The notes beneath the pieces are model-generated. The model did no database searches. It saw only the letters and a list, made by a program, of their open reading frames with translations, and was not told the origin of the DNA. Source: an uncultured virus (IMG/VR IMGVR_UViG_3300037156_000055) (Duplodnaviria > Heunggongvirae > Uroviricota > Caudoviricetes). From it: a stretch of 64,000 bases of DNA. This document shows, one piece after another, positions 4,194 through 62,058 of this stretch. Positions within the stretch are counted from its first letter, which is position 1, and every line of letters begins with the position of its first letter. The translations under genes were made by a program, and so were the position numbers. The stretch lies in IMG/VR virus record IMGVR_UViG_3300037156_000055; one strand, given 5' to 3'.

Positions 4194-4196
4194 TTT

Positions 4197-7064: not shown

Positions 7065-7080
7065 ACTTCCTCCAGAACAA

Positions 7081-9120: not shown

Positions 9121-9130
9121 AGACTACTCC

Positions 9131-9328: not shown

Positions 9329-9352
9329 AGTCTGTATCCTTTGTTTAGTTGA

Positions 9353-11704
9353 TTAAAGTTCTGCTGATGCGGTCCAATGAAAGCCGATTCCGTGATTAAC
9401 AGCAATACTGCCAGTGAGGCAGGCGACCATTCCTCCGCTGGTCCCAAAGTTATAGAACGCGGCGGATGACCATGATGCTCCGCCTGTGTAATCATAACCG
9501 GAACCGGCAGCGCCCGTATTTGGGTTCCACATCGTCATTGATGGCATAACACGCATAGATACCGGAAAGGTAATCGGAAAACTAGGGTTATATGCACTAG
9601 AGCTTACTGGAATGTACTGTTGCGCGATGCCATCTGCGCCAATGAAACCAACTGGAGAGCCGATATCATAGCTTTTGCAAAAGTACCGCTGACATAGTGC
9701 GAGTTCTGTACCATATAGACGCTGCTCAAATTGTGTCGCTACTGAGCCTGTTTCAAGTTGAACATTTGTAAACATAATCAGCGCGCCATTAGTAGCTACG
9801 ACAGATGAAGCTCCTGTGGCGCTTAGATAGTTTACGGACGCCCAGGTATTCGCTGTGCCGCTTTGAGTCGTACCGCAAGCCATTGCTAGATTTAACCACA
9901 TGCCCCCCGAGGTACCATAGTTCACCCATGTTCCAGCAGTATCGCCAGGGATAGTTATTGATATTTTAGTCCATGTTGTTACCGCTGGAATACTGTAAGT
10001 AAATGGATATGATCTTGTTTGAGCATAATTTTGGATTGACCCGCCATATGTGCCTATAACACCTGAAGCGTTTAGATAAACATAGAACGAAAGAGTGATA
10101 GCTTTTGCATAAGCTGTACCGAATCCAAACTCTGCAATGTTGTTAGATTCAATCGCTTGTTGCAAGACCCATTTATCTGCTGCCAGCACTGAATACGCTG
10201 ATGACGATGTGAATGATAAAGCATATGTAGACGACGGACCAATTGCCGTCGGAATAATGTTAGCTATTCCTTGCCATGTACCCTTACTCGCTTGCGTAGC
10301 ATTATAGAACCAACGATCAATCGTATAAACACCCAAAGCGGTACCTGACACGAAACTATTCCTCTGGTCGATCCACATCTGCCCATTGATGATCTTATTA
10401 CGCATGAACGAGTACGCCATGCTAACGGTACCTGCTGCAGCAATATTTGCACTAGAGTTGATTGCCCCAGTTACATTCAGTGGTGCAGATGCTGTAAGGA
10501 CTCCGCCGGTTGTGCCGCCGAAGTCGATGCTTGCGTTAGCTGTTGCCCCGCCCCACCAACGATAACCACTTGTTGCGGATCGTTGAGCTACGCTGTCTCC
10601 AGCAATAGCTCCAGCGAACGAAGAGTATGTTCCAGTACCAGCACTTACGATTACGCCTGATGCAAGCGTTAGAGATGTTGGACTGAAGATCGAGTTGCCC
10701 GTGTTGAACGTAAAGCTTGTTGAGCTTTGTACTGTTAGCGATACCTTGAGTGCGCCAGTTTGGATACTGGCTGGATTGAGTACCGCGAACGGTGAAGCTG
10801 CTAAAGATAAAGCTCCTGTACCACCATTAGCAATTGGGAGTACACCTGTTTGGGCACCACCTGCACCAATGTTTAGTGTGCCAGCAGTGATACCTGTGGC
10901 CGGAATGTTCACCGTGCCCGAGAATGTCTTCGTACCGCCGATGGTTTGATTGCTCGATAGATCAACGAAGTTCTGCGTCGTACTACCTGTACCGCCTGAA
11001 GCGATTGCAAGAGCAGTCGAAAGCGTTACCGATGTAAATGATGGTGTTGCAGTGATCGTAATCGCTGGTGTTAGACCACCAGACGATGCCATATTTCCTG
11101 ATGCAGTTACGTTTGTAACTGCGCCAGTTACGAGAGCAGCATTAGGAACACTACCTGCTGTTAGGCCAGCGCCGGAACCTGTGAATGATAGACCCGTAAT
11201 GATACCGGCAGCATTGATCGTCGTCGCGCCTGTGAGGGCACCAACGATTGCAAGAGCGCCATTGATTGTACTAGCACCGTTGGCAATACTTGTAGAACCA
11301 GTAACAAAGTTGCCAGCACTAAGGGTTAGATTGCCTGCGGTTCCTAATGTAGCTGTCTTACCGCCCGCGTTAGCACCAAGGATGACACTGCCTGCAGCCG
11401 CTGCAGTGAACAGTGCGTTCGTACCATCATCGCTGATGACTACTTTGCTAGCGGTACCTAGAGTAGCAGTACCAATTAACAACATCGAAGTCGGCCCGAA
11501 GGTCGAACTACCAGATGTGATTACACCTGATACGTTGATCGTGCCGGTCTGCTGTGATACAGGAGATAGGATTACAGACCCGCCAGCTTTGACAAAGTTC
11601 GCAAGAGAAATCTTGTAGTCAACGCCACCATCTGCGATAACGCCTACGGCTGAACCTGACGGAGTGCCAGCCGTAGTTAATGCGCTAATAGCTGTATCAG
11701 CCAT
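9353..11704 (-). CDS. tail fibre protein
   Basis: Gly/Thr/Ala-rich with LPIANGGTG and QTIGGTKTF repeats; C-terminal RNKIING..IDQR..TIDRW..VQLETGSVATQFE..ELALCQRYF. Confidence 0.85.
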   Translation of the reverse strand: MADTAISALTTAGTPSGSAVGVIADGGVDYKISLANFVKAGGSVILSPVSQQTGTINVSGVITSGSSTFGPTSMLLIGTATLGTASKVVISDDGTNALFTAAAAGSVILGANAGGKTATLGTAGNLTLSAGNFVTGSTSIANGASTINGALAIVGALTGATTINAAGIITGLSFTGSGAGLTAGSVPNAALVTGAVTNVTASGNMASSGGLTPAITITATPSFTSVTLSTALAIASGGTGSTTQNFVDLSSNQTIGGTKTFSGTVNIPATGITAGTLNIGAGGAQTGVLPIANGGTGALSLAASPFAVLNPASIQTGALKVSLTVQSSTSFTFNTGNSIFSPTSLTLASGVIVSAGTGTYSSFAGAIAGDSVAQRSATSGYRWWGGATANASIDFGGTTGGVLTASAPLNVTGAINSSANIAAAGTVSMAYSFMRNKIINGQMWIDQRNSFVSGTALGVYTIDRWFYNATQASKGTWQGIANIIPTAIGPSSTYALSFTSSSAYSVLAADKWVLQQAIESNNIAEFGFGTAYAKAITLSFYVYLNASGVIGTYGGSIQNYAQTRSYPFTYSIPAVTTWTKISITIPGDTAGTWVNYGTSGGMWLNLAMACGTTQSGTANTWASVNYLSATGASSVVATNGALIMFTNVQLETGSVATQFEQRLYGTELALCQRYFCKSYDIGSPVGFIGADGIAQQYIPVSSSAYNPSFPITFPVSMRVMPSMTMWNPNTGAAGSGYDYTGGASWSSAAFYNFGTSGGMVACLTGSIAVNHGIGFHWTASAEL

Positions 11705-11978: not shown

Positions 11979-12850
11979 CCTTGTTGCCAGAGGCCACCGG
12001 ACCATTGGCCGGTATAAGCGGTATTGACAGTAGGAATCTGAGCCGTGTTAGTTAGGCCGTTGACTCCGGTCGTATCAATCCACTGAGGAGAGAATGCTGT
12101 CCAGATATCAGCCATAACGAATGCAGTAGAGCCAGCAGCTAATGCACCGCTTGTTGTCGCTGCATAGAGTCTTGCTCGCCGGAACCATACGTTCGTCGGG
12201 AATGTAAATGGGATCGTGATAGTCGCACCGTTAGTAGCTGTCGTCGCAGAGAAGATTGCGCTTTGCGTACTCTCTCCCCATGGAGTCCACCACGTATACG
12301 TGTAGAATACTTGAGTAGCTGTTGGGATCGATCCGCCTGTGCCAAGTGATGGCGTAGGCGTACCTGGAGTGCTGAGTGTATTGACAACACTAACAGCACC
12401 ATTAGCTGGCCGCACACAAAAGAACACAGCTTTAACTGCTCCGACCTTTTGAGCCGAACCGATTTGATAGTTAAATGATAGCAACTTCAACATTCCGTAA
12501 AAGCCGTTATCGCCTTGATCAATCATTGTACCTAACTGCAGATTGAATGATGCAGCTAACGTCTTGTAATCAGTCTCGCTCATCTCTTGCCATTCAAGGG
12601 CTATAGCCGTAGGAGCATACTCCATAGGGCCAGAGATGATTGTCGGGCCTAACTGAACCGGGAGCGCCGTAGTTGCGTTAGACGACGGGCTCCCGCTAAA
12701 ACTATTATCACCAGGATCGTACGCGTACAAAGTCGGATTCGTGATACAGGTGAACTGCCCACCTGCGTCAGTTGAGAACTTAAATTTTTGAGCAGTCCCT
12801 AACCAATAAGGAGCGTTAAGCCGCGACATAATAGCTCCTATCAACTTCAC
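11975..12850 (-). CDS. distal tail-like protein
   Basis: First structural gene after tape measure; C-terminal YTYTWWTPWGES FN3-like segment. Confidence 0.55.
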   Translation of the reverse strand: MKLIGAIMSRLNAPYWLGTAQKFKFSTDAGGQFTCITNPTLYAYDPGDNSFSGSPSSNATTALPVQLGPTIISGPMEYAPTAIALEWQEMSETDYKTLAASFNLQLGTMIDQGDNGFYGMLKLLSFNYQIGSAQKVGAVKAVFFCVRPANGAVSVVNTLSTPGTPTPSLGTGGSIPTATQVFYTYTWWTPWGESTQSAIFSATTATNGATITIPFTFPTNVWFRRARLYAATTSGALAAGSTAFVMADIWTAFSPQWIDTTGVNGLTNTAQIPTVNTAYTGQWSGGLWQQG

Positions 12851-13565
12851 CAGTTTTTAGATTCACTGATGGATGTATATTTGCGTGTTGTTTAGAGTTG
12901 CATGATTTGCATTGCGGGATTATGTTGTCTTCCCAATTTGAACCACCTAGAGATAGAGGTATCGCATGTCCGACAGTCAACGGCCCATCGCTGCCGCAGT
13001 CTATACATTTGTAGTTATATCGTTCGCAAACGTCGTCCCATTCGTCTAGCTCAAGAACGCCGTCTGCGTTCTTTCTCCTAGATCGATAAGCGTTAACATG
13101 CATCACATGTTGCTCGGGATTCGCTTTACGATATTCCTTATTTCGATCACGTTCGCGCTGACGAAATTCAGTATCTTCTGCATACTTCTTGCGCTGCTGT
13201 GCCTTAAACTTAATTGCTCGTTCAGGTTTAAGTCGCATAGCTGCGTTATTGTTATCAGACCAGCGTTTCCCGTCTTCAGTCCGAAAACGTCTGATGCGCC
13301 CGGTCTCATTTTTGCAAAGGCGGCACATCCATGTCTTATATTTGCCAGCTTGACTTGAGTACTCTTGATAACGTATCTGATGCTTGTCGCATAAAGTGCT
13401 ACTATTAGCGGCAGGCTTCTTCAGCCCTGGATTTTTGCGCCGAGGTTCGTTGACACATTCGCGACAACGCCAATAGCAACTCCCGGTGGCATAGTTATAT
13501 ACACTGAACTTACATTGATGTTTATCACAGAACGAATCACTAGTACTCATCCTCTGTCTAGCCAT
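12816..13565 (-). CDS. HNH homing endonuclease
   Basis: CIDC..LTVGHAIPLSLGGSNWEDNIIPQCKSCN; two N-terminal CDKH..CRxC repeats. Confidence 0.88.
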   Translation of the reverse strand: MARQRMSTSDSFCDKHQCKFSVYNYATGSCYWRCRECVNEPRRKNPGLKKPAANSSTLCDKHQIRYQEYSSQAGKYKTWMCRLCKNETGRIRRFRTEDGKRWSDNNNAAMRLKPERAIKFKAQQRKKYAEDTEFRQRERDRNKEYRKANPEQHVMHVNAYRSRRKNADGVLELDEWDDVCERYNYKCIDCGSDGPLTVGHAIPLSLGGSNWEDNIIPQCKSCNSKQHANIHPSVNLKTGEVDRSYYVAA

Positions 13566-35300: not shown

Positions 35301-37187
35301 CTAATAGAGTCGCGCAGAAACTACGTGATGCGTTTCAACTGGAACCTCTTCAGCTTGTGAACCCCACACCATTGGTGCGTCAGTTCTCTTTTGCTTAGGA
35401 GCTAGTGCTTTATACGCAATGTTCGCAGCCCAGTTGGCGTAGATCACTGAATATGCGCCGTCATCATGAACGGGGCGTGTAAATGTATAATTACCCTTGG
35501 AATCGGTAATCGGTTTCCCTTCGCGATCTTTCTTGCGATCGATCTTCGGGAATTGACCAAGAGCTTCACGAATGTTATCAAGAATTTCGCCCTTGCTTGA
35601 CTTCTCATTGTAATACTCGGCGTCAGCAGTAGACATTGCTGTTCTAACTGTGCCGTTATCGAAACGAGCTTTCATATCAAGATGAAATGCGTTCTTGAGT
35701 TCAATCTCACTACTGATAGTTGAATCAACACGCGGGCCGAAAAGGCCAGATATCATAGTCTCGTCACTGGGACGAGTTAATACGACCTTTGCGCGACCCT
35801 GAAGTACATCTGGATGATCCCACGGATACATTGGTATGCATTCAGTAGAAACACCGTCAATGATCTGAGTCTTCTTCGTACAAGCTTCCGCAACTTGATA
35901 TCCGAGTGTACCACTCTTATCGAGTACAAAGTAATCGATGCTAGGATACTTGTTCTTTATCTTGTGCATGTGCCCAGCGATTTCTTCTGGACTTTGCTTT
36001 TCCCACTTGTAAACTGCGTGAAGATTTCGAACTTCATTGCCCGGCAAGCTCATAACAGCTATCTGTGTAGCGTCACTACCCATGCCAGCAGGATCGACTC
36101 CAGCAACGAATACCATTGAACTCTTATCCGGCGCTTTATCTAGCACCGGAACTTCAGCCGATTGACTCTCCATAATCTTATCAGTACGATACCAATTCGC
36201 GGACGACTTAATCCACTCGTTATAGTACGTCATACGCATCTCATCGCTGAGAATGCCTGTTACCTTATCCCTGCCTGTTTCCAATTGATGTAGGATTACG
36301 GCTAATGCGGCCGGGAAAGATTTTTTCGTATCTTCCGGTTCATCGGGATTAACTGGTCGCTGACTATTGATTACGTCATCGATAGTGATATCGAGGATGG
36401 CATAACCAGGGCGACCAAGTTTGATATAACGTGCGATGTCCATCAAAACAGAGTAGGCAAAGCAATCTTGATACCATGAAGTGGTAAGATGGATAAGCTT
36501 TGCGGGCTGCTCGCCCTTTTGGACGTTCAGGAATGGAACAACGTGTGATACATAGAGTTCACGCGGAAACAGATAGAACTCATCGAGTACAAGTACCGTT
36601 GCACGTTTACCGCGCAACGTCGAACCATCTCCAGCAGGCAACGCTTCAATTGAACTACCATTGATGAAAGTCATAATGACTTCATGGCCGCGTTTGATGT
36701 TGTCTTCCGGAATGTCTGCTTCGAGCTTGTAGATTAGCGCATCGATCTGAGAATTCGTTTTAATGATCTGCGCGCAGTAATCGTAGAGCGTCTTCGATTG
36801 CCTAAAGGAAGGCGCGATAATCTTTGCTGCTTGAAACGGGAACCTCAAGCTGTACGATACGAGCCAACGCGCAAGCGTATAGGATTTCGCCGAACCGCGA
36901 GCCGCTTGAATCCAAACGACCGTGTTGTTTTCGCATGTGCGAGTTATCGAACCCTGAAAGTCGTAAAGCGGTTCGAATGTACCTTCTTGCCAGTTCTGCC
37001 AATTGTTGCTTTCAGGAAAGAAGAATTCGTCAGCAAAGAATACGTCGCGCTTGATGTGTTCACACATCTGCTCGATAGTAGGTACATCTGCTGCGCTAAC
37101 CCAACTTTGTGGGATGATTGCTAAATCAGCTTTTCTCTGGGTTGAAAGAAAGGATTGCGGTTCTGAAATCGTGTTCATCTGCAACAT
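35301..37187 (-). CDS. terL: terminase large subunit
   Basis: Walker A AARGSAKS, LRGKRATVLVLDE Walker B, GVDPA and HDD nuclease motifs. Confidence 0.93.
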   Translation of the reverse strand: MLQMNTISEPQSFLSTQRKADLAIIPQSWVSAADVPTIEQMCEHIKRDVFFADEFFFPESNNWQNWQEGTFEPLYDFQGSITRTCENNTVVWIQAARGSAKSYTLARWLVSYSLRFPFQAAKIIAPSFRQSKTLYDYCAQIIKTNSQIDALIYKLEADIPEDNIKRGHEVIMTFINGSSIEALPAGDGSTLRGKRATVLVLDEFYLFPRELYVSHVVPFLNVQKGEQPAKLIHLTTSWYQDCFAYSVLMDIARYIKLGRPGYAILDITIDDVINSQRPVNPDEPEDTKKSFPAALAVILHQLETGRDKVTGILSDEMRMTYYNEWIKSSANWYRTDKIMESQSAEVPVLDKAPDKSSMVFVAGVDPAGMGSDATQIAVMSLPGNEVRNLHAVYKWEKQSPEEIAGHMHKIKNKYPSIDYFVLDKSGTLGYQVAEACTKKTQIIDGVSTECIPMYPWDHPDVLQGRAKVVLTRPSDETMISGLFGPRVDSTISSEIELKNAFHLDMKARFDNGTVRTAMSTADAEYYNEKSSKGEILDNIREALGQFPKIDRKKDREGKPITDSKGNYTFTRPVHDDGAYSVIYANWAANIAYKALAPKQKRTDAPMVWGSQAEEVPVETHHVVSARLY

Positions 37188-41640: not shown

Positions 41641-43955
41641 TGATGTCTTCTATTGCACTCTCATAGGCCGCGAAAGCGTCCCACCATTCCATCTCTTCGA
41701 GGTGCCTTAGTGATGCCATCCACCACCCCAGAATGTACTTCGCTGGCATCCCCTTCCACCATCCGACTCGGCAGTAACACTCTCTTGCGGGCTGGCATTC
41801 CCAACCCTCGGAATCGACCGTGAGTAAGACTTCGCCAACGGCGGGGGTGAACGACTTTGCCCAAGCGCGGAACTGGCTCTCTTGATCCTTGGTTTGGACG
41901 CAGGTCGGATGCCCCGCTACCCGGCCGCGTTGATAGCTTCCAGGGGGCGTAAACCCACCCATCTTTGGTAAGCGACTCACCGCTAGCCACCACCACCAGC
42001 TTTCGGCGCAGGGTACTCTACAGGCCGATTATTCTTCCAGAAGTAGACCTCTTGTATGGTTCTACCCACCCCAGACCAGCAGGGAGCCTTCAGCGGCCTG
42101 CTAGACCCCTCTACGGGCATTGTAGGAACCTCTCCAGTGAAGCAAATGTTGTGCTCAGCCCGGTACGCTTGAAGATCAGGAACGTAGTCGCACATCTGGC
42201 ACTCGCCGGGCGCATGAAGGATCGCTAAGTCCCAATGAGGATGCTTACCTAGAGTGATCAGGATATCTTCATAGTCTTGGGGCAGGCGCTTATCGTAGAA
42301 CACGTAGAGCTTCCTCGATGTCAGCTATCTGCAAACCAGCAAGCATAACTTGTTCTTCCGCTTGATTAACAACTTGAATCCACAAACATTGTTCACCTGG
42401 GCGTCGGCGACTTGGTCTTATGTAGAGTCGGGCAGTGTTACCATTATCGCTAGGCACACATGCTAAGAACGGTGTGCCATCGTCATACTCTCCGTTAGTC
42501 ATCAGTCACACTCCAACATGAGTTCGATAATTGCATCGTCTGCAATCTTGAGTAGTTCGTCGTAGTAGCCGCATTCGTCGCGGGCACCGTTAACGAAATT
42601 AAACTCGATAGCTTGCTTAACAGCATTGTATCGATCACGCAATGCGTAAGCAGTTGCTATTTCAACCATGTTGCCTTCTCATCTGGATGAATTACATTCC
42701 ATTGTGCTGCGTCATCAATTAGGTCTAAAGATTCTTCATCGTAATGGATATATGTTGGATGTGCCCGCAATATGCGATTACGTGCCTTACACACACCGCA
42801 ATGCACTACCGATGTAGCAGTTTCACTGCGGAACACATGCGCTAATGGGGTGATTAGCACATTTGGATCGAAATCGAGTTCTAAAGTCCCTCGTTCAAGT
42901 GTTTCCATTAGTAATTCGGATGCTTTGCAGTGAAAATGCTTTCAGCAATGCATTGTCCGATGTCGTAATGCTTGTTCATGAGCTTGTCAGCTTCGGCGCG
43001 AAGATTCGTAGCTTGACGTTCTAACTCGATCATTTCTTTATTCGGTGTGACCGGGATGGTTGCAATCCCGCCCTTGAAGCAGACGTTGTGACGAACGACA
43101 TCTGAACTATAGCGAGTTACCATGGTGTGTATACTCCGTCTTTGAATTGTCCAAGTGATTGTGTTACATAGAAAGCGTGGCCGGGATATTTCATTGTTAG
43201 ATCGCAGGCTCTGTCAAACGCCATATTGATATTTGGAATTCTCTTACCAATGACTTCATGCGACCATGATCGCACTTCCCAGAATGTACGTCGGGTCTTA
43301 GGCATCTGCATACTCTCTGTCAATGCGGGTAAGTCCATTTGTGTGTGAGCGGTCTGCCGCGAGACGTTGTTCGAGTCGCGCCAGCAAGACGAGCCCTTGA
43401 CGGATACGGCCAATCTCCGCTAGTTCTAAGAAACCAACGTCTACGTAGTTATTCGGATTGTTGTGCTTGACTACAAAGTCGATATGTTCGATGAGGTCTT
43501 CAGTTGTCATACGCGGCCACTAGCGAACACATAACCTCCTAGCTTTTCATAGTCTTCATTACTAAGAAACACTTTCGCAGCGCCTTTGAAGTAGACTACA
43601 ATCTCTTTCATGTTTGAGCCTTAAGGCGAGTCATGCGGCAGACCAAATCGATGTCTAATCGATCAGTAAGTTCATCTAGCAATTTATCGTATGCGACTTG
43701 ATCGTATCCATCGAGAATCTTGTACTCTTCGTCCGTAACGTCAACGAGGATGCTCGTTATAAGTTCTAGGTGTACCTTCATTCGCGGGCACCTGAGAGTG
43801 GGGTGCTTGCTCTCCCGTATGCTCTATTGAATAGTGCAGCTAGATGGAATAGGTCGGATGTATCTGCGCCGACACTAACTGCCTCACATCCGTCTGTTGC
43901 GAAGATGTCGATTACGTTATCTAGGATTTGAATTGTGATATTGTTACCGCTCATA
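41627..43955 (-). other. cluster of about 10 small coupled hypothetical ORFs (e.g. 41627-41980, 41983-42303, 42290-42502, 42657-42908, 42908-43123)
   Basis: Short ORFs with overlapping start/stop codons on minus strand. Confidence 0.6.
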
Positions 43956-44062
43956 GTGCGATAGCTTTCACGATAACTATGAGTCAAGGGGCGAGTCCTC
44001 TCTCGTGCAAGCACTCAAACAAAGAAAAGAATCTAGTTCTTTCAAACGAGTGCTGCTCAATC

Positions 44063-44091
44063 AGATTAACAGATTCGATTACATAAGTCAA
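44063..44091 (-). promoter_or_regulatory. sigma70-type leftward promoter
   Basis: TTGACT-17 nt-TAATCT with TGn extension on minus strand. Confidence 0.6.
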
Positions 44092-44779
44092 TAGCTTATT
44101 CGTAGTAAGCTTGCGAACGTGCCCTGCGTCTGAAATTCTTTGTTCGAGCGGTTCTCGCAAGAGGGTTCGCGAGTTTTTCCCCGCTTCCCCAAATTTTTAT
44201 TCGCGATGCATGTGATATAGCCGACATCGATAGATAACTATTTGGTTATATATTATCTTTTTCTTTTGGGGCTCAGAGCGTGTGACCATGTGGTGCCGCA
44301 GGAGTTAAAAAGTGACATGTAACCCTTGGAAACCCACCCCCGTATGGGTCCCGTGGCCCTCCTATTCACGAGGGAATGAGCACGATTAGCTAGCCCAGGA
44401 GATTGGCAAGTATGTATGTACGTGCCGGATGTATCTTTGCGTTGTCATTCGATGCGTCCGATTATGCAACTCAACGGACTAAACGCGCATGAAGTGAAAC
44501 GTATAACTAAACGGTTATGTATTGAGTTAACAATGGTAGGGTGCACGTTGTTACTTGCCGCGAGGTTAGCTATCAACAACTCGTAACCTAAGCACGAACC
44601 GAGTTACAATTAGACAAAACATAATTCAACCTAATTACTAATTCAATTAACTTCTAATTCAATTCAATTGCCTGTATTTGCTTACAGGCTAAGGATTATC
44701 TAATTAACAAGGTATGTCCCTGCGTCTTAGTGTTCTATTTGTCTGTATGTCCTTGGGATAGTCGGCTATGGCCCGGCAT

Positions 44780-44890
44780 CCTCAAATGCGTTTTAAGGGC
44801 TATTCCAGCCCTTCTGAGCGGCGATAGGGGTGGGCAGAGTATTATCTATGCAGGCAGGTTCGTTCCGTTCGTCCTGGGCGATTTAAGCAC
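44780..44890 (-). repeat. dispersed ~110-bp phased element
   Basis: CCCAGGACG..TAGATAATAC-N10-CCTATCGCCGCTCAGAAGGGC. Confidence 0.7.
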
Positions 44891-44912
44891 GAGAAAAAGC
44901 AAGTAAGAGGAC

Positions 44913-44943
44913 AAAATAAAGGAGCACCCTTGCGGGTGCTCCT
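44913..44943 (-). terminator. intrinsic terminator of the 3-gene leftward operon
   Basis: AGGAGCACCC-GCAA-GGGTGCTCCT followed by TTATTTT. Confidence 0.85.
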
Positions 44944-44964
44944 GTGGTATGTGAACCGAGGTTC

Positions 44965-45168
44965 CTAACTAACGTCTCGCCATTCGATTCGACCGACGTT
45001 CAAAGCATCTACGTTCGCGGTTTTCTTGAAGTACCGTTGCGCGAAAGCTTCCGCATCCTTGCGCATTGTGAACGAACGAAGGTCGCCGGTAGGCAGCATT
45101 ACCAAGAATCCGTCTTGGTCCCATTCGATTATTACCTTGCCTTGATTGAGTACGTTCGGTTTCGTCAT
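44965..45168 (-). CDS. hypothetical protein
   Basis: Last of three coupled ORFs. Confidence 0.65.
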   Translation of the reverse strand: MTKPNVLNQGKVIIEWDQDGFLVMLPTGDLRSFTMRKDAEAFAQRYFKKTANVDALNVGRIEWRDVS

Positions 45169-45169
45169 C

Positions 45170-45382
45170 TTACTTGCTGCCTTTCAGAGCGTTATCGATA
45201 GCATGATAGCTAACGGTTCTCGTCCGGTTCCCATAGCCGGGCGCGCCTAGACTTCTCACGGCCTTCTCTTGGTGTTTGGCGCAGTAAAAATTCTTAATCG
45301 TGATCACTCCGGCCCTTACTTCCTGGTAGCCCGTAGCAAGCTTTTTGCAGGAAGCGTATTGTTCGCAGGTTTGGTTTGTCAT
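45170..45382 (-). CDS. hypothetical Cys/His protein
   Basis: C-x5-C ... CAKH. Confidence 0.65.
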   Translation of the reverse strand: MTNQTCEQYASCKKLATGYQEVRAGVITIKNFYCAKHQEKAVRSLGAPGYGNRTRTVSYHAIDNALKGSK

Positions 45383-45383
45383 T

Positions 45384-45728
45384 TTACTTGTTGCCTTTCA
45401 GTAGGTGCGCGTTCATAACTTCTTCCAGAGATGCGAACATTTTGAGGGGTTCGCGTAAGTAAGCTTCCACAGGCGATTCATTCCGGTCGATAGCAGCAAA
45501 CCATTCTGCCTTGCCAGCATCGTAGGTTTTCGCGATTATCCTGCGTTCGGCTGAAGGAAGCGCGAAAAATTCGTTTAGGTATGCAGGACGAGAATCATGG
45601 GTACGTTTGCGGCATGAAACTACCGCGCGGCATGTTCCATGATTAAATCGCGAAGTGAAGTTTTCGTATCCACAATTTTTGCATTGGCCTACTTTTTTGC
45701 CAGAGAACCGGGAGGGGTAGTTTTTCAC
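45384..45728 (-). CDS. hypothetical zinc-binding protein
   Basis: GTG start with AGGAAAGG RBS; CKNC..C..C. Confidence 0.65.
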   Translation of the reverse strand: MKNYPSRFSGKKVGQCKNCGYENFTSRFNHGTCRAVVSCRKRTHDSRPAYLNEFFALPSAERRIIAKTYDAGKAEWFAAIDRNESPVEAYLREPLKMFASLEEVMNAHLLKGNK

Positions 45729-45774
45729 TTGATAACCTTTCCTAAGTAGGTGTTTGTTTCCTTGGTACGCGTGA

Positions 45775-45804
45775 AGCGTACCAAAACCGACTTAGCAAAA
45801 TCAA
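45775..45804 (-). promoter_or_regulatory. leftward promoter overlapped by an inverted repeat
   Basis: TTGATT-18 nt-TACGCT with TGn; TTGGTACGC-N5-GCGTACCAA at 45762-45784. Confidence 0.5.
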
Positions 45805-45829
45805 GCATTTAGGCTATTCTTTACAATCG

Positions 45830-45930
45830 ACAGAAAGGGCCCTAGAAGGGCCTAGAACGCGTCTTAATTGCTATGGGGTACTCTTACCCTCGGACCCCTG
45901 CTATCGTCGAACCTAGCGAAATTTAAGCAT
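45830..45930 (+). repeat. dispersed ~110-bp phased element
   Basis: AAGGGCCTAGAACG..GGGTA-CTCT-TACCC..CTATCGTCG. Confidence 0.7.
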
Positions 45931-46065
45931 TTGACGAATTATCTTTTGTGTGCTACGGGCGCGCGTTCCTTACGGCGCGAGAAAGTGAAAACGGGCCGGA
46001 TTATTAGTAAGTACGCAGGGTGAAACTATGTAAAGGCGACTTAACAAACATAGGCAAAATAACTA

Positions 46066-46094
46066 TTGCAATTCGGCACGTATAGGCGCATCAT
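46066..46094 (+). promoter_or_regulatory. rightward promoter with GC-rich discriminator
   Basis: TTGCAA-17 nt-CATCAT followed by GCGGGGG. Confidence 0.45.
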
Positions 46095-46140
46095 GCGGGG
46101 GTCGGTCGCGGCCAGACAAGCCGGGGGCACGACAAAGAAC

Positions 46141-46159
46141 GAACCTTGAAAATTGAATA
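46141..46159 (+). promoter_or_regulatory. rrn-type boxA antitermination element
   Basis: GAACCTTGAAAATTGAATA, matching the boxA form known from cyanobacterial/Firmicutes rRNA operons; preceded by a small hairpin. Confidence 0.7.
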
Positions 46160-46935
46160 TGAAACTACTAGCGCAGGAAATAGTTTAGCGCGTGCTATGT
46201 GAATAGTACGAACGAAAACCCCTCTCGTTATGGCAGAAGTCTAAAGCTCGCAAAGCTTGGCGGTTTAGGAGATGACCGGAAATTACTTGGTTCGCCAGGG
46301 AAATTCGGTACCCCAAAAATTGCTAGACAACATGGCCTAGAGAAAACTTCCAAAGGCATGAAGGCTAGAACCCTTCAATTCATCCTAGGGGATATAAGTG
46401 GGGATACGTTCGGAGGGCAAACATAGATTAGACACGAGGCAGTAAAACGTCATCGAAACACATTCCTGGTGTTCTGGTACGGATCATATTCTATAAAGCA
46501 GAATCCAAAAATGACGAGAGGGCCAAACGCCTTCTCTCGCGGTCGGAAATGTGGTATCCAATCCAATCTAATCAGCGGAACGGATGGGCATTCTCCTCGG
46601 GGGCCAAAAGAGAAAGCTAAGGCGCGAACGTAGGACCGGCGGACAGGTTCTTAGTCTAAAAGTGATTTTGCAAAAATTGTCTAGAGCTTAAAACGCTAGG
46701 GAGGACCGTATTACGCTGGCCCCTAGTATGAAGTTTAGGTGAGGACGGAAAGCTAGATTCCAGTAAGGCATATGCGGTATCATCCGGCCCCTATAAAACG
46801 TCACAGTCTACCAGACAAGTAGATGACGAACGGGCAAAGAATCGAATGATACAAGGCAGGTTTACGAAGCGGATAGGCTAGGCCAGAACAAAGAGAACTA
46901 AGGGGAGAGGGTAGCGCAAACTACCCTCTCCCTTC
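46160..46935 (+). ncRNA. large structured non-coding RNA (GOLLD/ROOL size class, family unassigned)
   Basis: No credible ORF; many nested helices (46191-98/46203-10 with GUGA loop, 46323-30/46677-84, 46405-12/46625-32, 46448-53/46511-16, 46777-83/46846-52); 12-bp closing hairpin 46903-46932. Confidence 0.7.
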
Positions 46936-46951
46936 TCTTAGTAAGAGTTTA

Positions 46952-47126
46952 AACGCAGGGGTTAATCATAAAAGGCGAAGGTCCGAAGGGCTAACGGTAA
47001 ACGGGGCGGGGGACGGGGGACACCTAAAAATGTCCTACCTAGGCAGGGAATGTAAGGAAGTAAAGCATTCGACCGCGTTAGCTAACTAGTAAACTTGATT
47101 AACTTAAAAATTCGTCACCCTGTGTT
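46952..47126 (+). ncRNA. second structured RNA domain, about 175 nt
   Basis: Nested stems 46952-60/47118-26, 46961-68/47096-103, 46990-96/47076-82. Confidence 0.5.
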
Positions 47127-47165
47127 CTTAGTAAGTTTAGAAAAGGGTTTGAGAAAGAGGGTCCT

Positions 47166-47318
47166 ATGAATTGCAATATTTGCGGCCACCGCGCAGAATA
47201 TCAGGATGACAAAAATGGAGAAGTTATTTGTGCCCCTTGCCTGGGACCGTTCCCGGCTAATCATTACTCCTTGATAGATGAACCGGAAGAAGAATGGGAC
47301 GAAGAGTTTAATGTATAA
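47166..47318 (+). CDS. 50-aa zinc-finger microprotein with acidic tail
   Basis: GAGG RBS; MNCNIC...ICAPC...DEPEEEWDEEF. Confidence 0.65.
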   Translation: MNCNICGHRAEYQDDKNGEVICAPCLGPFPANHYSLIDEPEEEWDEEFNV

Positions 47319-47400
47319 CTTCTTCTGCGGCCAAGGACACTACTCTGGTGCAGGGTTACATACATGCCCAACCTGCGGTCTACAGAAAGGGAAACCATAA
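47311..47400 (+). CDS. 29-aa zinc-ribbon microprotein
   Basis: MYNFFCGQGH...CPTCG; overlaps upstream stop. Confidence 0.55.
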   Translation: MYNFFCGQGHYSGAGLHTCPTCGLQKGKP

Positions 47401-47402
47401 AT

Positions 47403-47507
47403 ATGGGACCGGGAAAACCAATCCGTTGTCTCACCTGCAATTCTCCGAAGTATTTTGACGTTAAGAAGGGGAAGCTTTGCTGCCCCGTTTGCGAAGGGAA
47501 ACCATAA
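47403..47507 (+). CDS. 34-aa zinc-ribbon microprotein
   Basis: CLTC...CPVC. Confidence 0.6.
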   Translation: MGPGKPIRCLTCNSPKYFDVKKGKLCCPVCEGKP

Positions 47508-47593
47508 TGCTAAAGCTTCGTATGCAAAAATGGTGTTACCGTTCAATCATGGCCTATGAAGTGAAAGGTTCGCGGATTATTCGTCACACCTAA
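47507..47593 (+). CDS. 28-aa basic microprotein
   Basis: TAATG coupling to previous ORF. Confidence 0.45.
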   Translation: MLKLRMQKWCYRSIMAYEVKGSRIIRHT

Positions 47594-47865
47594 CCCTTCT
47601 CTCTCGAACCATCCTCTAAGCTTACTAACAACGTAGGAGTTATGAACCTGCGTCTACCCATTGGCGGTAGGTGTTTACCGCCCGGTCAAAACGGGGTAGG
47701 ACCGCGTAACTATCCCCTTCATTTTTGCAGGTTTGCCGGAGAGGTGCTACGTTGTGACACTAGCACTAAGCGGACACTAAAAAGGGGCGGACCCCTTACC
47801 TGCCTTTTACATACCTAAACAAAAGCCGGAATCCGGCTTTACACCCAATAGCAAGGAGCAAAATC

Positions 47866-48096
47866 ATGGCGAATTTCTGCACCCATGGGAATGACTCTTA
47901 CTCTTACGATACCTGTATACGTACCGTTGACGATAACGGCCGTATTATCCAAAACGTAACGAAGTATTCTAAGACGACAAGCAAACACCAGAACGAAGCT
48001 TTCCGGTATGATAGCAAGCTTTCACCTTCGCGCGTTGACGACGTTCCTAGAGGGGCGACCGCACAGGACCTTCGCACCTTGGCGCAGGAGGGTTAG
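47866..48096 (+). CDS. hypothetical early protein
   Basis: AAGGAG RBS; YSKTTSKHQ motif. Confidence 0.75.
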   Translation: MANFCTHGNDSYSYDTCIRTVDDNGRIIQNVTKYSKTTSKHQNEAFRYDSKLSPSRVDDVPRGATAQDLRTLAQEG

Positions 48097-48099
48097 GTT

Positions 48100-48594
48100 A
48101 TGCTCGATACTTTTACGCGCGCGTACATTGATTGTGCGTTATGGTCTACCACGCCCTTCGGAACCTGTTTCTGCGAACATTCCTTAGAGAATCATGCAGG
48201 ATTCTCTTATGATACTTCCACAGGCGGAGAATGTTCCGCCTGTGATTGTACCGAATATCAGGAGGGGGACGTATCCTTTCAGACCCTTAATTACGAAGAG
48301 GAGGACATTTCACCTGATACCCTCGCGCGTATAGCGGAGGATTGTCGGACATTCCAGGAAGAGAACCAAGGTTCTCTTTTGTACCTATACGGTACCATCG
48401 GCATGAATTACGATGCAGCATCGGCTGGACATGATTTTTGGTTAACGCGTAACGGACATGGTGCAGGATTTTGGGACCGCTATTATGGGAAGGATAAACG
48501 CATCCTGTCCGCCTTCAAGGCGTTGACGGAATCATGCCAGCATCATACATTCGACCTATACCTAGGGGATGACGGAAAGGTTTGGGGGTCATAA
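48100..48594 (+). CDS. conserved phage early protein of unknown function
   Basis: AYIDCALWS and AGHDFWLTRNGHGAGFWDR motifs. Confidence 0.75.
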   Translation: MLDTFTRAYIDCALWSTTPFGTCFCEHSLENHAGFSYDTSTGGECSACDCTEYQEGDVSFQTLNYEEEDISPDTLARIAEDCRTFQEENQGSLLYLYGTIGMNYDAASAGHDFWLTRNGHGAGFWDRYYGKDKRILSAFKALTESCQHHTFDLYLGDDGKVWGS

Positions 48595-51233
48595 TGCCCA
48601 AACATTCGGCAGCATACCTTGCCCTTCCAATTCACCAAAGGTTAGTATTTGCGGCAACCCAGTACGATGCGAAGTTATCGGCTAAGGATGGTAACGTATA
48701 CCGTCTTGGTATCATCCTACGGGCCCTGCAGGCTATAGAGGACCATGACCCAGAGTACCGCCTATCATGCTGCGCGCATCATACGTTATTCGATAACTTC
48801 TCAGACAGGTTGCTTTCAGCATTTGAGAAGGAATTGGGATACAAGGTTAGTTATGGCCGGGGGTTTACTGATACCGCCCGGCGTCCCCTCACTTGCTCGA
48901 AAGAGGTTCTGTAATGAGTAAGATTCGCACCCTCATTTTCGAGGGGTTAGACTACAAGGTTGACGCATATGGTTGCATGATTGGCGAACATAAATTCGGC
49001 CATTTGCCCCTCCATGCTATCAGAGATTACGATACCTCTATAATTGCTAGTGATTGTTTCGGCGACGTTAGCGAATGGGGTTCCTACTGGTGGAAGGTTC
49101 CGAAGGTATATCATCATTCCCATACGCCGGACGCATACCAATACTATTACGAAACCTCGGATGGTTTCGTTTATGAGGTTTCGGCTAAGGAATGGGATGC
49201 AGAATGGGATGCGTACTGTAATGCGGCCAACGAACAAGAGGAACGTGATAACGCGATACTAGATGCCCAACAAACAATAGAGGAATTGGAAGAGGAAGAA
49301 AAAGGTCCCTGTGATTCCTGCAACAAGTCTTTCGTATCATTCGGTGGAATGTCGGCCGTAATTCACGAACAGGGATGCCCCCGCGAACACGCATTGAAGG
49401 ATGCGCGCACACACCTCGAACGTTTAGAGGATTACTAAAAATGGAATATACCCTTCCGCCAATTACCGATAGGCAAGCAGTAAACGTGGCCCGTAACACC
49501 TTGCACGAATTACTCTATGCTTCAGACATTGGGCCTACCGACAAGGTGCTACGTTCCTTGCACGAACGCGCGCAACCCAAGGAATCCGACATTCGTTCGG
49601 CTATTAAGGTCCTCGAACGTTTGCATGAGAAAATGCTAACGGAAGGAGTAGACTAAATGCGATACCGCACCCATGCCGACATGTCCTTCGTGAAGGATGC
49701 CCAAGGGTACACTACGCCGCAGGTTCGTAATCGCAAATACCGGGGGACCTATGTGTCCCCCGTTTCATTCGTTGACGTTTCATTCGAGGACGGTATACGT
49801 TACCCAATTACTGTGAGGGTTTTCTAATGCGCGGTACTGACATTATCTATTACACATACGAAGCGGACTCTCACTGTATCGCCTGCACGGTTGACAGGTT
49901 CGGTCCCGCCGATTCTCAATTCGTTGCGCCCCCGCACGGTTACGGTTATATCGAAACCCTGTCGGATGGATCGACCATTGAGTTAGACGAAAATATGGTT
50001 CGTATGAATTCGCGGGATGACGAAGGGAATTCTGTTCATCCTGCCTTCGCCTCGGATGAAGGACCGGACTATGCTAGTACCCTTTGCGGAACCTGCCAAC
50101 GAGTAATGTGTTTGTCATGCGGGACTACACAGGGCGAGGATACCGTGCCCGGCAATGGCAAAAACCGCATCGTAGAACAATGTTGGAATTGTCATACCTC
50201 CTTCAAAGACGAAGAGGAGGAAGAGGAAACCTTCTGTCCGCTATGTGAGGATGAAAAGTATAACGACGACGCATTTTGCAACGGAGGATACTGTCTCGCG
50301 CAGGATGATAAGCCGGATCATCCTCATACCTCGGGAACGTACTACGAAACCACATGCGAAGCTTGCGTGAATCACGCAAAGGCGAATTGGTCTACACATA
50401 AGGAGTAACACCTTGCCCGGACACAAAACCGCCCAATGGAAAAAGAGGATGAAGCCCAATACCCTCCCAGGGAGGGAAGGGAAAATGTCCGCTCGGTTCT
50501 ACGGTTGGGCGTATGAGGATTACAGTACGCACTATTGGCGGGGGTTGCAGGAAGTCCGCAACAAAAGCAACCGCTACAAAAACATCGACCACACTACTAT
50601 ACGCAAGTATGAGGAGGGTTAGCTAATGGGAGAGTTCATCGACCTTACCCCCGAGAGTCTTAAGACGCCGGAGGGTGCGGAGAAGGTTCGCAAGGCTATG
50701 GAATTGTGGCATGATTGGCAGGCGCGCGTCGCAAATGATTCGGCAGCATTCATACGCGCATTAGCAGGGAGAGACTAGTGGGTTACTATGGCGGAGAGTT
50801 AGTCTCGGGACGTTGTGAAGATTTTCCCTGTTGCGGACATACCGACGGCGACCCATGTCCGCAACCTTATGAGGTTCGCGGTACACTTGAGTACGCCTTA
50901 CACAAGGCTGAACAAGAATGGTATGCGGAGAACGCACGGGCTGAACGTCGTGCGATATACGACAACGCACCTTCTACTTGTGAGGAGTATTTCACGGAGC
51001 ATACCGAGGCGGAGGTTCTGAACTATCGCCTATATACTGGCGACGTTCAGCCGGGGTTCGAGGAAGCATACGAAACATACGAAGGACCGATGACATACGC
51101 AAAGCTTGTCTCGTTCCTGGTAGAGAATCACCGGGCGGACATATACTGCGATAAATGCCAAGAATGTATAGCAGAAGCAGCAGACAACGAAGCAGAATGG
51201 GAACGCGAACGCTACGAAAGGGATAACTACTAA
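48594..51233 (+). other. run of small acidic or Cys-rich early ORFs (48594-48914, 48914-49438, 49441-49656, 49827-50408, 50413-50622, 50778-51233)
   Basis: TAATG couplings, GGAG RBSs, Asp/Glu/Cys-rich products. Confidence 0.7.
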
Positions 51234-56496: not shown

Positions 56497-56616
56497 CTTA
56501 AAGGGCAAATAAGGCCCTAGGACGAGTTCGTGCCCCTCCGGGGGTACAATTCCCTATCCCACTACCTAACGTCGCTCACAGAGGCCAGGAATGGCCTTTC
56601 TGGGCATCCTAGAGAG
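56497..56616 (+). repeat. dispersed ~110-bp phased element (reference copy)
   Basis: Aligns without gaps to the reverse complement of 61635-61740 and largely to that of 2231-2340. Confidence 0.8.
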
Positions 56617-57570
56617 AATTGAAATGAAGAACTTTGATTCATGGTTGACTCACGATCCTGCGTCTGATTTTGAACTGCCCGAATTTCCTTTCGGGACGGT
56701 TGCATATATCACGCACGACGATTACCTGCCAGCGATGAAAACTGGAACAAAAGTTATCATTCTTCGTATCTCTGAAAACGATATGTATGACTATGAAATA
56801 GCACTGATAAATCTAGATGGGGATTGTGAAACAACTTTTGTTCGCTATGGCGACATAAACGTTCCTGATCCGCGTATCGACTACACCTGTTCAGGTTGTA
56901 GTAACTATCCATGTTGTTGTGAGGACTTCAATGAGTAAGGCAACCCAACGAAACGAGGAATGTAATGAAAGTTAGTGTCACGTTTAATGTTAGTGATTAC
57001 GAACGGTATCAGCTTGCATACTATAATCACCGCCAAGAATTTAGTCGTTCCGATTGGAACGCTAACCCGCGCAAAGCAACACGCGCTGAAATTGTCGATG
57101 CTATTGAAAGTGCTTGGGACAACGAAGGCTTAGTTATTGGTGATGAGTGTCCTAATTTCAATGATGACGGAACGACCGACCCGTTAAGGAGTGGAGACAA
57201 TGAGGAGGATGGTGAATGAGTAAGGCTGCATCTATATTTTTTGGGCTTGTTAGTTGGTTCTTGCAAGGCCGCAAAGTGCCGCGCTTGCACTATACTGAGA
57301 CATTAGTGAACCAGATCAATGCTGCGTGGTTCTCTGGCGAGAGCGGGCCACGAAGCACAGACTTCCCGCAATCACCATCTAAAGCTGCAATACGCAGGGT
57401 TCTTCTTCTAGCAGAAAGGTTACAATGACTGACAAGCTCAATGAAGAATTGCGGGCAGACCTCAAGAAGCTCCCTGAAGTAGAACTAGAACATGACGCAG
57501 GTAACGTACACATAGACTTGGATATTAAACCTGCTACCGAGTCAATCCAAGTGAAAGCGACTATCAAGCT

Positions 57571-60071: not shown

Positions 60072-61634
60072 TGTTTGAAGGTTTGTTTAGCGATGAGCAA
60101 CTTGATAAGGTTCTCAAGGCAGTACACAACGAGATTGATCCAGTTCCGCTAGAAGATCACCGGCGCTACATCAAGCACCTATTCACGACGGCCGAACCAA
60201 ACTCATATGAAGAAATGATGATGTCGGCCATACTTGAAAACTACAACAAAGCTTTGAAAGACGCAGGGATACAATGAAGACTCTATCCGTAGCGACTAAG
60301 ATTCGCTGCTACACATTCTCTCTAGTAAATCACAAACTTCATCTTACCTATGTGGAGAACAAATGACTCTGCAGCGATACACAATCAACCATGACGAAGA
60401 ATACCCTGATAACAACGGAGAACACGTTCGCTGGAAAGATTTTGAAGAACAACAAGAAGTCTTTGCGGCAGTAATCAACGTTATCAACCAATTCGCAAAC
60501 GGGGAAGCGGCAGTAGACGTAGACGAAGAAGAACAATCCGAAGTGGCCCGTGTATTTCAGTTAGCTATTATAAACGTGCAACAAGCGCAAGATCGTCTAG
60601 CATCTAAACGGATGCTAGAGAAAGTGATGGAGATTCGTGAGTCCAAAGATCGGTGATTGCCCATGCGGGCATCACGCTAGTAATCACCAATGGCGCAGGG
60701 TAGGAGATACAACGTATTGTCCATGTACCAAATGCAATTGCTCGAACTTTAAGAAAGTATAAAATGAAACTGATTACAGGATTCCTAGTTGGTGGAAATC
60801 GCATTACAGCTAAAGTGTTGTGCCGCATATGCTTGTCACAACAGAATACACAGTGGGACTACATTGTTAAGAATAGCGAACATCGTCGTTGTTCTTGTTG
60901 CGGGAAACAGGTTATATAGCCAAAATCCCAAAAATACTTTCCCCGGGAGAAGGGGTTAGTCGATTACAGCCAATACACCAAACTTTTTCCTGGAGAAATT
61001 TTATGCCATCAGATGATACAACCGTCAGTCTCCTATCAGGCGGCGGTGGTACTGCAGCCGGAGCATTAGAGTGCTGCTTGGAGGATACGTACAATGAATC
61101 AAAGCAGGTATGAGCGACAAGCAGAAGCTTGCGCTTTACCTAACTACGGTCCACCCACTCATCTCTTTGTGATCCGATGGGATGATACCAATCCATCTAA
61201 CCCGGTCAACCAAGAACCGGGTCACATCGAACCAAGCTATCATCATGACGCCTATTGGGGTGAGGCGGGCTGTAACGAGCCCAGGTGCCCTAAGTACCGA
61301 GGACACAATGAATCAAGCTAAGCTAGACCCAGGTCATCCTGATAACTGCAAGACGAAGAATCACGTATGGTCTTCCGTCCCAGATGTACCCGGTAGCTAT
61401 TACGTGTACTGCCTGAGGTGTGAACTTGGCGGGGCTGTAGACATTGACGGCCCCAGGGAACCCTATAACCCCTGTGAGGACTTCCATATGGTCGGCGACT
61501 ACCTCGTAGGACCTCGATAATGACCCCTGACTGGGATAAGATCGTCAAAGAGGCTGACGAAGGCAGCATCCAGATGAGGAAGCTCCTCACAGCGGTGTTC
61601 GGGCCACCTAGTGAAACAGTGCAGGTAAAGTATG

Positions 61635-61750
61635 CCCTCTACGATGCCCAGAATGCTCCTTCTAAGCCTCCAGGAGCCACGATAGGTACCTCAGGGGTAT
61701 AATGTACCATAAATGCTACCTTAACTCGTCCTAGGGCTCTAAAGTAGCAT
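61635..61750 (-). repeat. dispersed ~110-bp phased element
   Basis: Shares GCCCTAGGACGAGTT, GGTACA and TTCTGGGCATC at identical spacing with the 56.5-kb copy. Confidence 0.8.
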
Positions 61751-61845
61751 ATTTGATACGTTATATCGACTAGTGCCAGTATTCTATCGGAATAAGACTC
61801 CGATAACTCCGTGTCAGATAAACACCACAGTTTTCTGACATCCTT

Positions 61846-61875
61846 GCCGGGATAGCTCAGTTGGCAGAGTGCCTG
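61846..61875 (+). pseudogene. tRNA 5'-half-like fragment
   Basis: GCCGGGA-TAGCTCAGTTGGCAGAG with no T-arm or 3' acceptor strand. Confidence 0.5.
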
Positions 61876-61916: not shown

Positions 61917-61943
61917 AAAAAAAGAGCCCTCTTTCGAGGGCTC
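61917..61943 (-). terminator. intrinsic terminator for leftward genes at the right end
   Basis: GAGCCCTC-GAAA-GAGGGCTC-TTTTTTT on minus strand. Confidence 0.85.
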
Positions 61944-61985
61944 CCTAAAGTATAATAACGATCAGGCATATTATACTTTAACCAT

Positions 61986-62058
61986 GCCGATGTAGCTCAG
62001 TGGTACGAGCGTCTGTCTTGTAAACAGAGGGCCGTGAGTTCGATTCTCACCTTCGGCT
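61986..62058 (+). tRNA. tRNA-Thr(UGU)
   Basis: Acceptor GCCGATG/CTTCGGC (one mismatch), D-arm GCTC/GAGC, anticodon arm TCTGT-CTTGTAA-ACAGA, T-arm GTGAG-TTCGATT-CTCAC; no encoded CCA. Confidence 0.9.

Follow-up and report, generated by a model that had tools for sequence, protein, structure and literature searches.

Coding sequences that are looped out of a folded RNA are known from domain IV of group II introns and from the peripheral loops of group I introns, and RNase III stems are tied to the translation of small early genes at T7 gene 1.1/1.2 and in the lambda N leader. ORF-bearing intervening sequences (IVSs) are known from rRNA, where the helix-45 23S IVS of Coxiella burnetii, as described in the accessible part of PMC4990558, measures 428 nt and possesses a 28-bp terminal stem with a sense ORF in its loop. 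According to the same source, RNase III cuts this stem in its middle and excision removes the SD region, while one ORF of this kind that has been studied is apparently untranslated. RNase III of B. subtilis is furthermore reported to cut long-range duplexes (10.1101/2023.03.12.532304).

The window analysed here, i.e., the whole stretch of 64,000 nt, derives from a peat-bog phage and represents most of one tailed phage genome. It contains a cassette of four micro-ORFs enclosed by a long-range stem, which we interpret as a gene-bearing insert occupying one of the loops of a large structured RNA. This RNA would head the phage early transcript, measure roughly 1.7 kb and be antiterminated through boxA, while the insert would probably be cut out by RNase III; we assign a probability of roughly 0.45 to this interpretation.

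In contrast to group I and group II introns, the locus has no intron core, no interrupted gene (no split gene was found at the cassette flanks) and no reverse transcriptase or homing nuclease in its loop, where a Pfam search returned no such domain. The RNase III sites of T7 and lambda are local hairpins, whereas the loop of the cassette spans 430 nt. The cassette appears to work like an ORF-bearing 23S rRNA IVS: both consist of an insert of about 430 to 530 nt with a long terminal stem, a sense coding sequence in the loop and an SD sequence at the stem, and in both cases the larger folded RNA could stay together in two pieces. Judged against the accessible description of these elements, it is nevertheless not one of them, since its host RNA is not an rRNA, shows no match to any Rfam family and is located in a phage. 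In addition, the loop carries four coupled, apparently intact micro-ORFs rather than a single S23p four-helix-bundle ORF (no match of that type was found among the four in Pfam, PHROG or NCBIfam), the stem comprises 45 pairs rather than 28, and cleavage is here proposed by analogy.

The phage RNAs GOLLD and ROOL, as presented in the accessible parts of PMC12286853 and PMC5737381, are large, multi-junction phage RNAs with structured 5' and 3' parts around a variable, cargo-bearing linker, an organisation that is predicted with modest support for the present RNA as well. They differ in that their cargo consists of tRNAs rather than protein genes, and in size, with an average of 581 nt for ROOL and more than 800 nt for GOLLD compared to about 1.3 kb for the present RNA without its loop. 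Furthermore, GOLLD and ROOL usually adjoin tRNA islands, whereas the phage region is not located at such an island and has no match to their Rfam models. With the leader of an rRNA operon the locus shares two features, a boxA of rrn type that precedes a long stretch of untranslated RNA and a long-range duplex around an internal segment, as these leaders are described in the accessible parts of PMC8632103 and PMC8461337; it differs from them in that the bracketed piece is an mRNA, with the structured RNA being placed outside the stalk, and in that boxA lies about 950 nt upstream of the stalk.

The nearest positional analogue is represented by the Pleft RNAs of mycobacteriophages L5, D29 and StarStuff, which are likewise non-coding RNAs heading an early transcript, ahead of small early genes, and which have likewise lost segments via recombination between short repeats (PMC5712189). 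They differ in being about 500 nt in length, with no stem-closed ORF cassette being described in the accessible part of that article, and an INPHARED blastn search returned no sequence similarity of the region to them. Literature listings, drawn mostly from open journals, revealed no phage RNA in which a stem encloses an operon of micro-genes. It is possible, though doubtful, that the locus represents a stable RNA of about 1.3 kb that belongs to a class of its own and exceeds ROOL and most GOLLD RNAs in size, with rRNA-operon-like expression (boxA and an RNase III stalk) and with an excisable, exchangeable operon of zinc micro-proteins as its intervening sequence. If this were true, one very early transcript would give rise to a two-piece structured RNA and to a burst of a tiny four-gene message; phages would thereby borrow the rRNA expression route and obtain a large RNA and micro-proteins from a single transcript, and one more large RNA class would be added to those described.

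The ORF-poor stretch and its long-range stem

Profile matches identify a terminase at positions 35301-37187 of the window and, elsewhere in it, a tail fibre, a ParB-like protein and a tyrosine recombinase (57571), while the sole tRNA of the window, a tRNA-Thr at 61986-62058, is located 14 kb from the cassette. Positions 61842-61875, 140 nt ahead of this tRNA, resemble the 5' half of a tRNA and are followed by a terminator-like hairpin near 61919-61946. Genes for GIY-YIG/NUMOD3 and HNH endonucleases are present at 946-1593 and 12816-13565. A 57-nt inverted repeat (74%; 56563-56619 and 61632-61688) flanks 5 kb including the recombinase; this repeat resembles 45830-45860, overlaps coding sequence and scored 46 in a 6-kb scan performed without matched control.

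The cassette region is located between a block of small genes on the minus strand, which ends near 45808, and a block on the plus strand, which starts at 47866. From 45729 to 48099 (2,371 nt) no ORF of at least 80 aa is present on either strand; among 80 phage loci with the same neighbouring gene, the largest gap free of such ORFs measures 1,367 nt. The gene at 48100 encodes a protein of 164 aa, the homologues of which sit in the terminal repeats of Caulobacter phages, and this fits an early region. On the minus strand, a 27-nt repeat (89%; 45161-45187 and 45375-45401) is found at the junctions of adjacent small genes, where it forms a shared translation-start region comparable to the 14-mer of the cassette described below. 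A putative family of CCCTGYGT-type repeats was borderline, with 32 matches against 22.6 expected, and was dropped.

The first-pass annotation of this DNA had proposed two complementary arms, beginning at 47124 and ending at 47632, and both arms were located at these positions. They also display the G-U pairs and the approximately five mismatches that had been attributed to them, as the 38-bp core contains two G-U pairs, five mismatches and one bulged base. The proposed length of ~38 bp, by contrast, is an underestimate, because the full duplex pairs 47111-47162 (left arm) with 47593-47646 (right arm) and comprises 45 pairs, i.e., 40 Watson-Crick and five G-U pairs, with an energy of -53.9 kcal/mol and an uninterrupted run of 14 bp. 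When 47100-47660 was folded (z -2.3, equalled by 1 of 100 shuffles), the arms paired with each other in the MFE structure as well as in the centroid structure. No inverted repeat in 44000-51000 is longer than the one they form as 47119-47161 and 47595-47637 (77%). The whole window was also scanned for complementarity, with a helix-aware score, arms 100-2500 nt apart and 30 block-shuffled windows as a control; the stem reached a score of 57, while the runner-up scored 39.5 and the maxima of the shuffled windows ranged from 32.5 to 40. The cassette stem is non-random.

The helix-aware score superseded two earlier scans that were unsuitable, one being based on unconstrained duplex energy and the other on a score that was too lenient. 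In the former, the site ranked 8th of 1,049 windows, a result that would be in line with chance complementarity, although this measure rewards long bulged duplexes. None of the 30 shuffled windows came within 17 points of the stem in the helix-aware scan, and the arms coincide closely with the limits of the ORF chain: as had been annotated, the first SD-like stretch (SD1, 47155-61) lies within the left arm and the last stop codon (47591-93) directly adjoins the right arm. Chance complementarity is thus close to refuted.

The arms could instead represent an inverted repeat at the DNA level, either as the ends of an invertible or mobile cassette or as two facing copies of a start-site repeat, in which case pairing of the RNA would be incidental. 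Three of the core mismatches are A.C, i.e., G-U on the minus strand, so that the core wobbles favour neither strand and do not settle which strand is relevant; moreover, the phage encodes the above-mentioned tyrosine recombinase, and at locus L137 start-site sequences repeated on both strands mimic long-range stems. However, the outer extension of the stem contributes three G-U pairs that exist on the plus strand only, and the arms fit the ORF chain exactly. Furthermore, no target-site duplication was seen by eye, the frame reached from the right arm on the minus strand extends over no more than 14 codons, and no strand-changing joint is present in the low-depth contigs of runs X2 and X3 that cross the arms, although such contigs cannot prove absence. 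An origin at the DNA level is therefore considered very unlikely. The start-site repeat of L137 measures 22-28 nt, ends in ATG and recurs on both strands across positions 4128-10325 of that locus.

Several minor features are associated with the arms. An identical 9-mer is present at 47110-47118, where the left arm starts, and at 47579-47587, shortly before the right arm. A 23-nt inverted repeat formed by 45401-45423 and 47635-47657 scored 39.5, which is inside the range of the shuffled maxima. The left arm could also pair elsewhere through its 5' half, as 46004-46023 and 47115-47134 are complementary at 18 of 20 positions, and the strength of this alternative is similar to that of the cassette pairing (-26.1 versus -27.6 kcal/mol). 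It would enclose a domain of 1.1 kb in competition with the cassette stem, and would be relevant only if transcription begins further upstream.

Four micro-ORFs within the loop

The four tightly packed micro-ORFs that had been annotated initially (50, 29, 34 and 28 aa) were all found on the plus strand, where they fill the loop from one end to the other, neighbouring ORFs being either overlapping or separated by 2 nt, and the three sets of paired Cys/His motifs assigned to them correspond to three zinc-type motifs counted in the loop. A tiling of the loop by ATG-initiated ORFs was possible in 8 of 20,000 dinucleotide shuffles, while a tiling that also included at least two zinc-type motifs was obtained in none of the 20,000. 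Such Cys/His motifs are not specific to the cassette, as at least two are present in 7 of 35 other plus-strand ORFs examined. A codon-usage score failed to tell real short ORFs from spurious ones.

ORF1 (47166-47318; 50 aa) possesses a zinc-ribbon-like CxxC-x17-CxxC motif and an acidic tail. It is a called gene in a public protein collection, in which ORF2 and ORF3 are not called, and in the ESM Atlas it is found in unnamed clusters only. Matches below the cut-off were obtained for ORF1 to phrog_15572 (E 0.005) and to the Pfam families Lar_restr_allev (E 0.011) and Zn_Ribbon_TF (E 0.015), and no short homologue was present among its four matches. ORF2 (47311-47400; 29 aa), with a CxxxH...CxxC motif, overlaps the stop codon of ORF1 by 8 nt. 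ORF3 (47403-47507; 34 aa) carries a CxxC-x13-CxxC motif and shows 7 of 17 identities to ORF1, while ORF4 (47507-47593; 28 aa), the start of which overlaps the ORF3 stop, is basic and without a zinc motif. ORF2, ORF3 and ORF4 begin at internal ATGs of longer, mechanically derived ORFs, and no family match was found for them in Pfam, PHROG or NCBIfam.

The identical sequence at the end of two ORFs that had been pointed out previously is a 14-mer with exactly two copies in the window (47387 and 47494); a repeat of that length arose in 6 of 5,000 shuffles. Each copy supplies the SD sequence and the stop codon that precede the next start codon, i.e., that of ORF3 or ORF4, and ORF3 is therefore a 107-nt unit between direct repeats.

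The further suggestion that the stem gates translation is not supported by folding, as SD1 is predicted to be mostly paired both before the right arm is present (unpaired probability 0.25) and after (0.15). A ‘translation timer’, in which SD1 would be free until the right arm is made, was not supported either, because SD1 is already predicted to be paired before that point. The unpaired probability of AUG1, according to the folding calculation, rises from 0.06 to 0.70 once the right arm exists.

Predicted nested helices and relatives of the putative larger RNA

Folds of 45950-47870 or 46600-47870 predict helices on the plus strand between sequences upstream of the cassette and sequences downstream of it. 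From the outermost inwards these are 46662-71/47858-67, which was seen in only one of the two folds, 46733-41/47812-20, 46853-61/47798-806, 46866-76/47710-20 and 46953-59/47647-53, the next helix inwards being the cassette stem. Six nested helices are thus predicted, the cassette stem lying innermost, and the unit would be a structured RNA of larger extent that carries an insert, not a message with a single isolated stem. All six helices stay at a pair probability of 0.82-1.0 when the cassette loop is forced open, and 48% of the bases predicted to be unpaired are A. The gain from pairing of the two flanks (-23.8 kcal/mol) was equalled by 5 of 100 shuffled and by none of 47 natural 200-mers. 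In a colinear-chain test, 4 of 150 and 9 of 150 shuffles, and 0 of 77 and 3 of 77 natural segments, were as good, with the best chains sharing only one or two helices with the fold. Support for the five predicted outer helices is modest (p about 0.03-0.06), the tests being post hoc and marginal. The minus strand folds nearly as well as the plus strand (-399.0 versus -404.9), and its pairing gain is larger (-34.2, a value without shuffle control); the plus strand is favoured because of the ORFs, boxA, the A-rich loops and the three extra G-U pairs in the outer stem.

The 5' part of the putative non-coding RNA (46160-46660, plus strand) contains no ORF of at least 80 aa and is purine/A-rich, and its local folding is no better than that of shuffles, as is the case for all 150-nt windows starting at 46000-46700 (z -0.8 to +1.1). 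Values of z -1.72 and -1.26 were obtained for 46650-47120 and 47630-47870, respectively. The subsequent segment (46662-46959) supplies the 5' strands of the five outer helices, between which are located a variable peripheral hairpin (46777-46852), predicted by the fold and altered in a relative discussed below, and a strong hairpin (46888-46942) with a 13-bp core (46902-14/46921-33) and a window z of -4.6. The latter was also flagged as terminator-like on the minus strand. Direct repeats of 10 nt (46936 and 47126) flank an optional module (46946-47125), for which the folds predict a domain closed by 46960-68/47096-104. The 3' non-coding segment (47647-47867) bears the partner strands of the five helices, together with three predicted local hairpins and a predicted terminal hairpin (47822-40). 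A 58-aa ORF across this segment (47642-47818) has a poor SD spacing and the worst codon score of the plus-strand ORFs tested. Rfam cmscan searches of four overlapping stretches (43000-50000; E up to 5 or 10) returned no rRNA, intron, GOLLD/ROOL or other match near the gathering score.

These data also bear on two explanations that dispense with part of the proposed arrangement. In the first, a restricted version of the first-pass interpretation, the upstream region would consist of individual hairpins strung along an extended antiterminated leader, and the stem would act by itself as an RNase III or translation-control element of the early message, with no large RNA spanning the cassette. The cassette stem is indeed much better supported than the outer helices, most of the leader folds locally no better than chance, and an optional module between direct repeats suggests modules in a string; in addition, the early leader of Cluster A mycobacteriophages is described as yielding abundant processed non-coding RNAs (PMC5712189). 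This explanation nevertheless leaves unaccounted for the 220 non-coding, hairpin-rich bases that follow the right arm, as well as the colinear pairing predicted between them and the upstream segment, and the gating it may invoke is not borne out by the state of SD1, which is paired before and after stem closure; we regard it as unlikely.

In the second explanation, the stem would merely insulate the cargo so that the core can fold, and the ORFs would be read from the intact large RNA. The same structural evidence applies here as for an excised insert, AUG1 is more open after stem closure, and the 5' and 3' regions of GOLLD and ROOL are described as surrounding a variable linker, sometimes with tRNAs (PMC12286853). 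On the other hand, SD1 remains paired in the closed form, and a duplex of 45 pairs far exceeds the needs of insulation and resembles the long-range duplexes that RNase III cuts, which makes an uncut linker quite unlikely. The preferred reading, i.e., an insert excised from a large structured RNA, treats this 45-pair long-range stem as a plausible substrate of RNase III, by analogy with such duplexes.

Comparative evidence for the structure is provided by one diverged contig of 320 nt (contig 17 of run X5; depth 3.5). It matches 46640-46885 with 22 other letters and six gaps, continues with 52 other letters that replace 46886-47125, and then matches 47126-47147 exactly. The contig ends after these 22 of 22 matched left-arm letters, before the cassette, and they form the short side of the joint. 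The differences comprise 19 listed substitutions and six indels, all in 46771-46852, while three of the 22 have no listed place; neither 46640-46770 nor 46853-46885, where four of the predicted long-range helices have their 5' strands, contains a listed difference. The changes were read by eye against the predicted pairs: the C.A mismatch at 46784/46845 becomes C-G, and the U-A pair at 46780 becomes C-G via an inserted G. The middle helix loses two outer pairs and gains an inner A-U pair by two-sided changes (46792 and 46831), both strands of the inner stem differ in such a way that four pairs can still form, two pairs turn into an internal loop, and the pair 46777/46852 is lost. Such changes would be consistent with the behaviour of a peripheral hairpin in a structured RNA, as judged from a single low-depth contig, the joint of which may stem from other organisms or repeats. 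Its spacing suggests that the relative is devoid of the 46946-47125 module, and the 5' strand of helix 46953-59 is absent from it as well, unless it lies within the 52 unseen letters.

Four of seven listed sequencing runs contain at least half of the words of 45800-48600; all are peat metagenomes, and three come from two studies. Runs X2 and X3, which belong to other studies, show no listed difference from the window where covered and thus provide no covariation, while run X6 covers the downstream gene only. The contigs compared were all of DNA, and positions left uncovered in X5 and X6 carry no weight.

Related phages exist, as 27 terminases with 44-87% identity over near full length were found among 37 matches; a terminase alignment identified two relatives in JGI and none in IMG/VR or GTDB, and single-protein scans for relatives returned one marginal locus or none. 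At the nucleotide level, an INPHARED blastn search with the 2.3-kb non-coding region gave no match, and two shorter pieces gave only chance matches of 19-30 nt, while a PLSDB search with the non-coding region was likewise without a match. Exact patterns in IMG/VR (boxA, 37 loci; core 16-mer, 62; left-arm 18-mer, 15) revealed no similarity past the seed, and the left-arm 22-mer had no match in JGI metagenomes. The 38 GTDB loci with the boxA 20-mer showed no further similarity (in five whole genomes boxA alone was matched), and the 80 IMG/VR loci with the neighbouring gene showed none to the non-coding region. A whole-record comparison of 50 loci yielded two short matches, of which the 18-nt one, at L240, lies within coding DNA and was dismissed as chance. 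The related loci L196 and L197 neither reach nor resemble the cassette region. The INPHARED, PLSDB, IMG/VR, JGI and GTDB searches thus yielded no full-length homologue of the region from which covariation in the formal sense or an exchanged cassette could be read. L196 contains a 1.5-kb ORF-poor stretch of its own (922-2400) with 31-nt tandem repeats, which has no Rfam match and is not homologous to the present one.

boxA and the proposed expression of the locus

An rRNA-type boxA motif is located at 46141-46159 on the plus strand, with GAACCTTGAAAA at 46141 being the sole exact match in the window. The rrn spacer boxA of Thermoleptolyngbya, a cyanobacterium, as given in the accessible part of PMC8461337, has the same sequence as the 12-mer at 46141-46152. 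A 20-mer around boxA is present at 38 GTDB loci, nine of which run out within 120 nt downstream. It lies 44 nt ahead of a 23S gene at one of 20 GTDB loci scanned by Rfam (L232) and precedes tRNA arrays at two of the 38 (L205 and L206), while a boxA 19-mer is found ahead of a 13-tRNA array in a phage locus (L031). We read the boxA at 46141 as a real antitermination signal, which would bind Nus factors in the manner described in PMC8632103. The antiterminated transcript envisaged in the first-pass annotation is plausible in light of the 12-mer identity and of the position of the 20-mer ahead of a 23S gene and tRNA arrays elsewhere. A weak candidate promoter, recognised by eye at 46066-46094 on the plus strand (8 of 12 sigma-70 matches; 17-nt spacer), would direct a start near 46101; it is below the threshold of the promoter scan and absent from the list of that scan.

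Taken as a gene-carrying insert in a large structured early RNA, the locus may be expressed as follows. Host RNA polymerase would start near 46100, pass the rRNA-type boxA and be carried by a Nus antitermination complex through about 1.06 kb of untranslated RNA. The segments flanking the cassette would then pair by the five predicted nested helices, with the 45-pair stem sealing the four ORFs as a separate domain. By analogy, RNase III would cut within the stem and free a four-gene message of roughly 450-500 nt, while a two-piece RNA of about 1.3 kb would remain, joined by the outer helices as might be expected from the same analogy. The micro-ORFs, which are laid out as a coupled chain, would be translated into small zinc-binding early proteins, the role of which, judged from their position and weak matches, would most likely be in host takeover or counter-defence. 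As to the job of the large RNA, our guess is that of a stable, abundant decoy or scaffold.

The same boxA was encountered in two further contexts. At 6 of 20 genome loci (L202, L211, L216, L218, L222 and L234) and at the viral locus L019 it is located shortly 5' of Rfam pemK motif RNAs, which hints that the leaders with this motif may be Nus-antiterminated. Among 20 viral loci scanned, 8 (L002, L004, L013, L016, L021, L022, L025 and L026) have a group I intron downstream of a promoter and this boxA.
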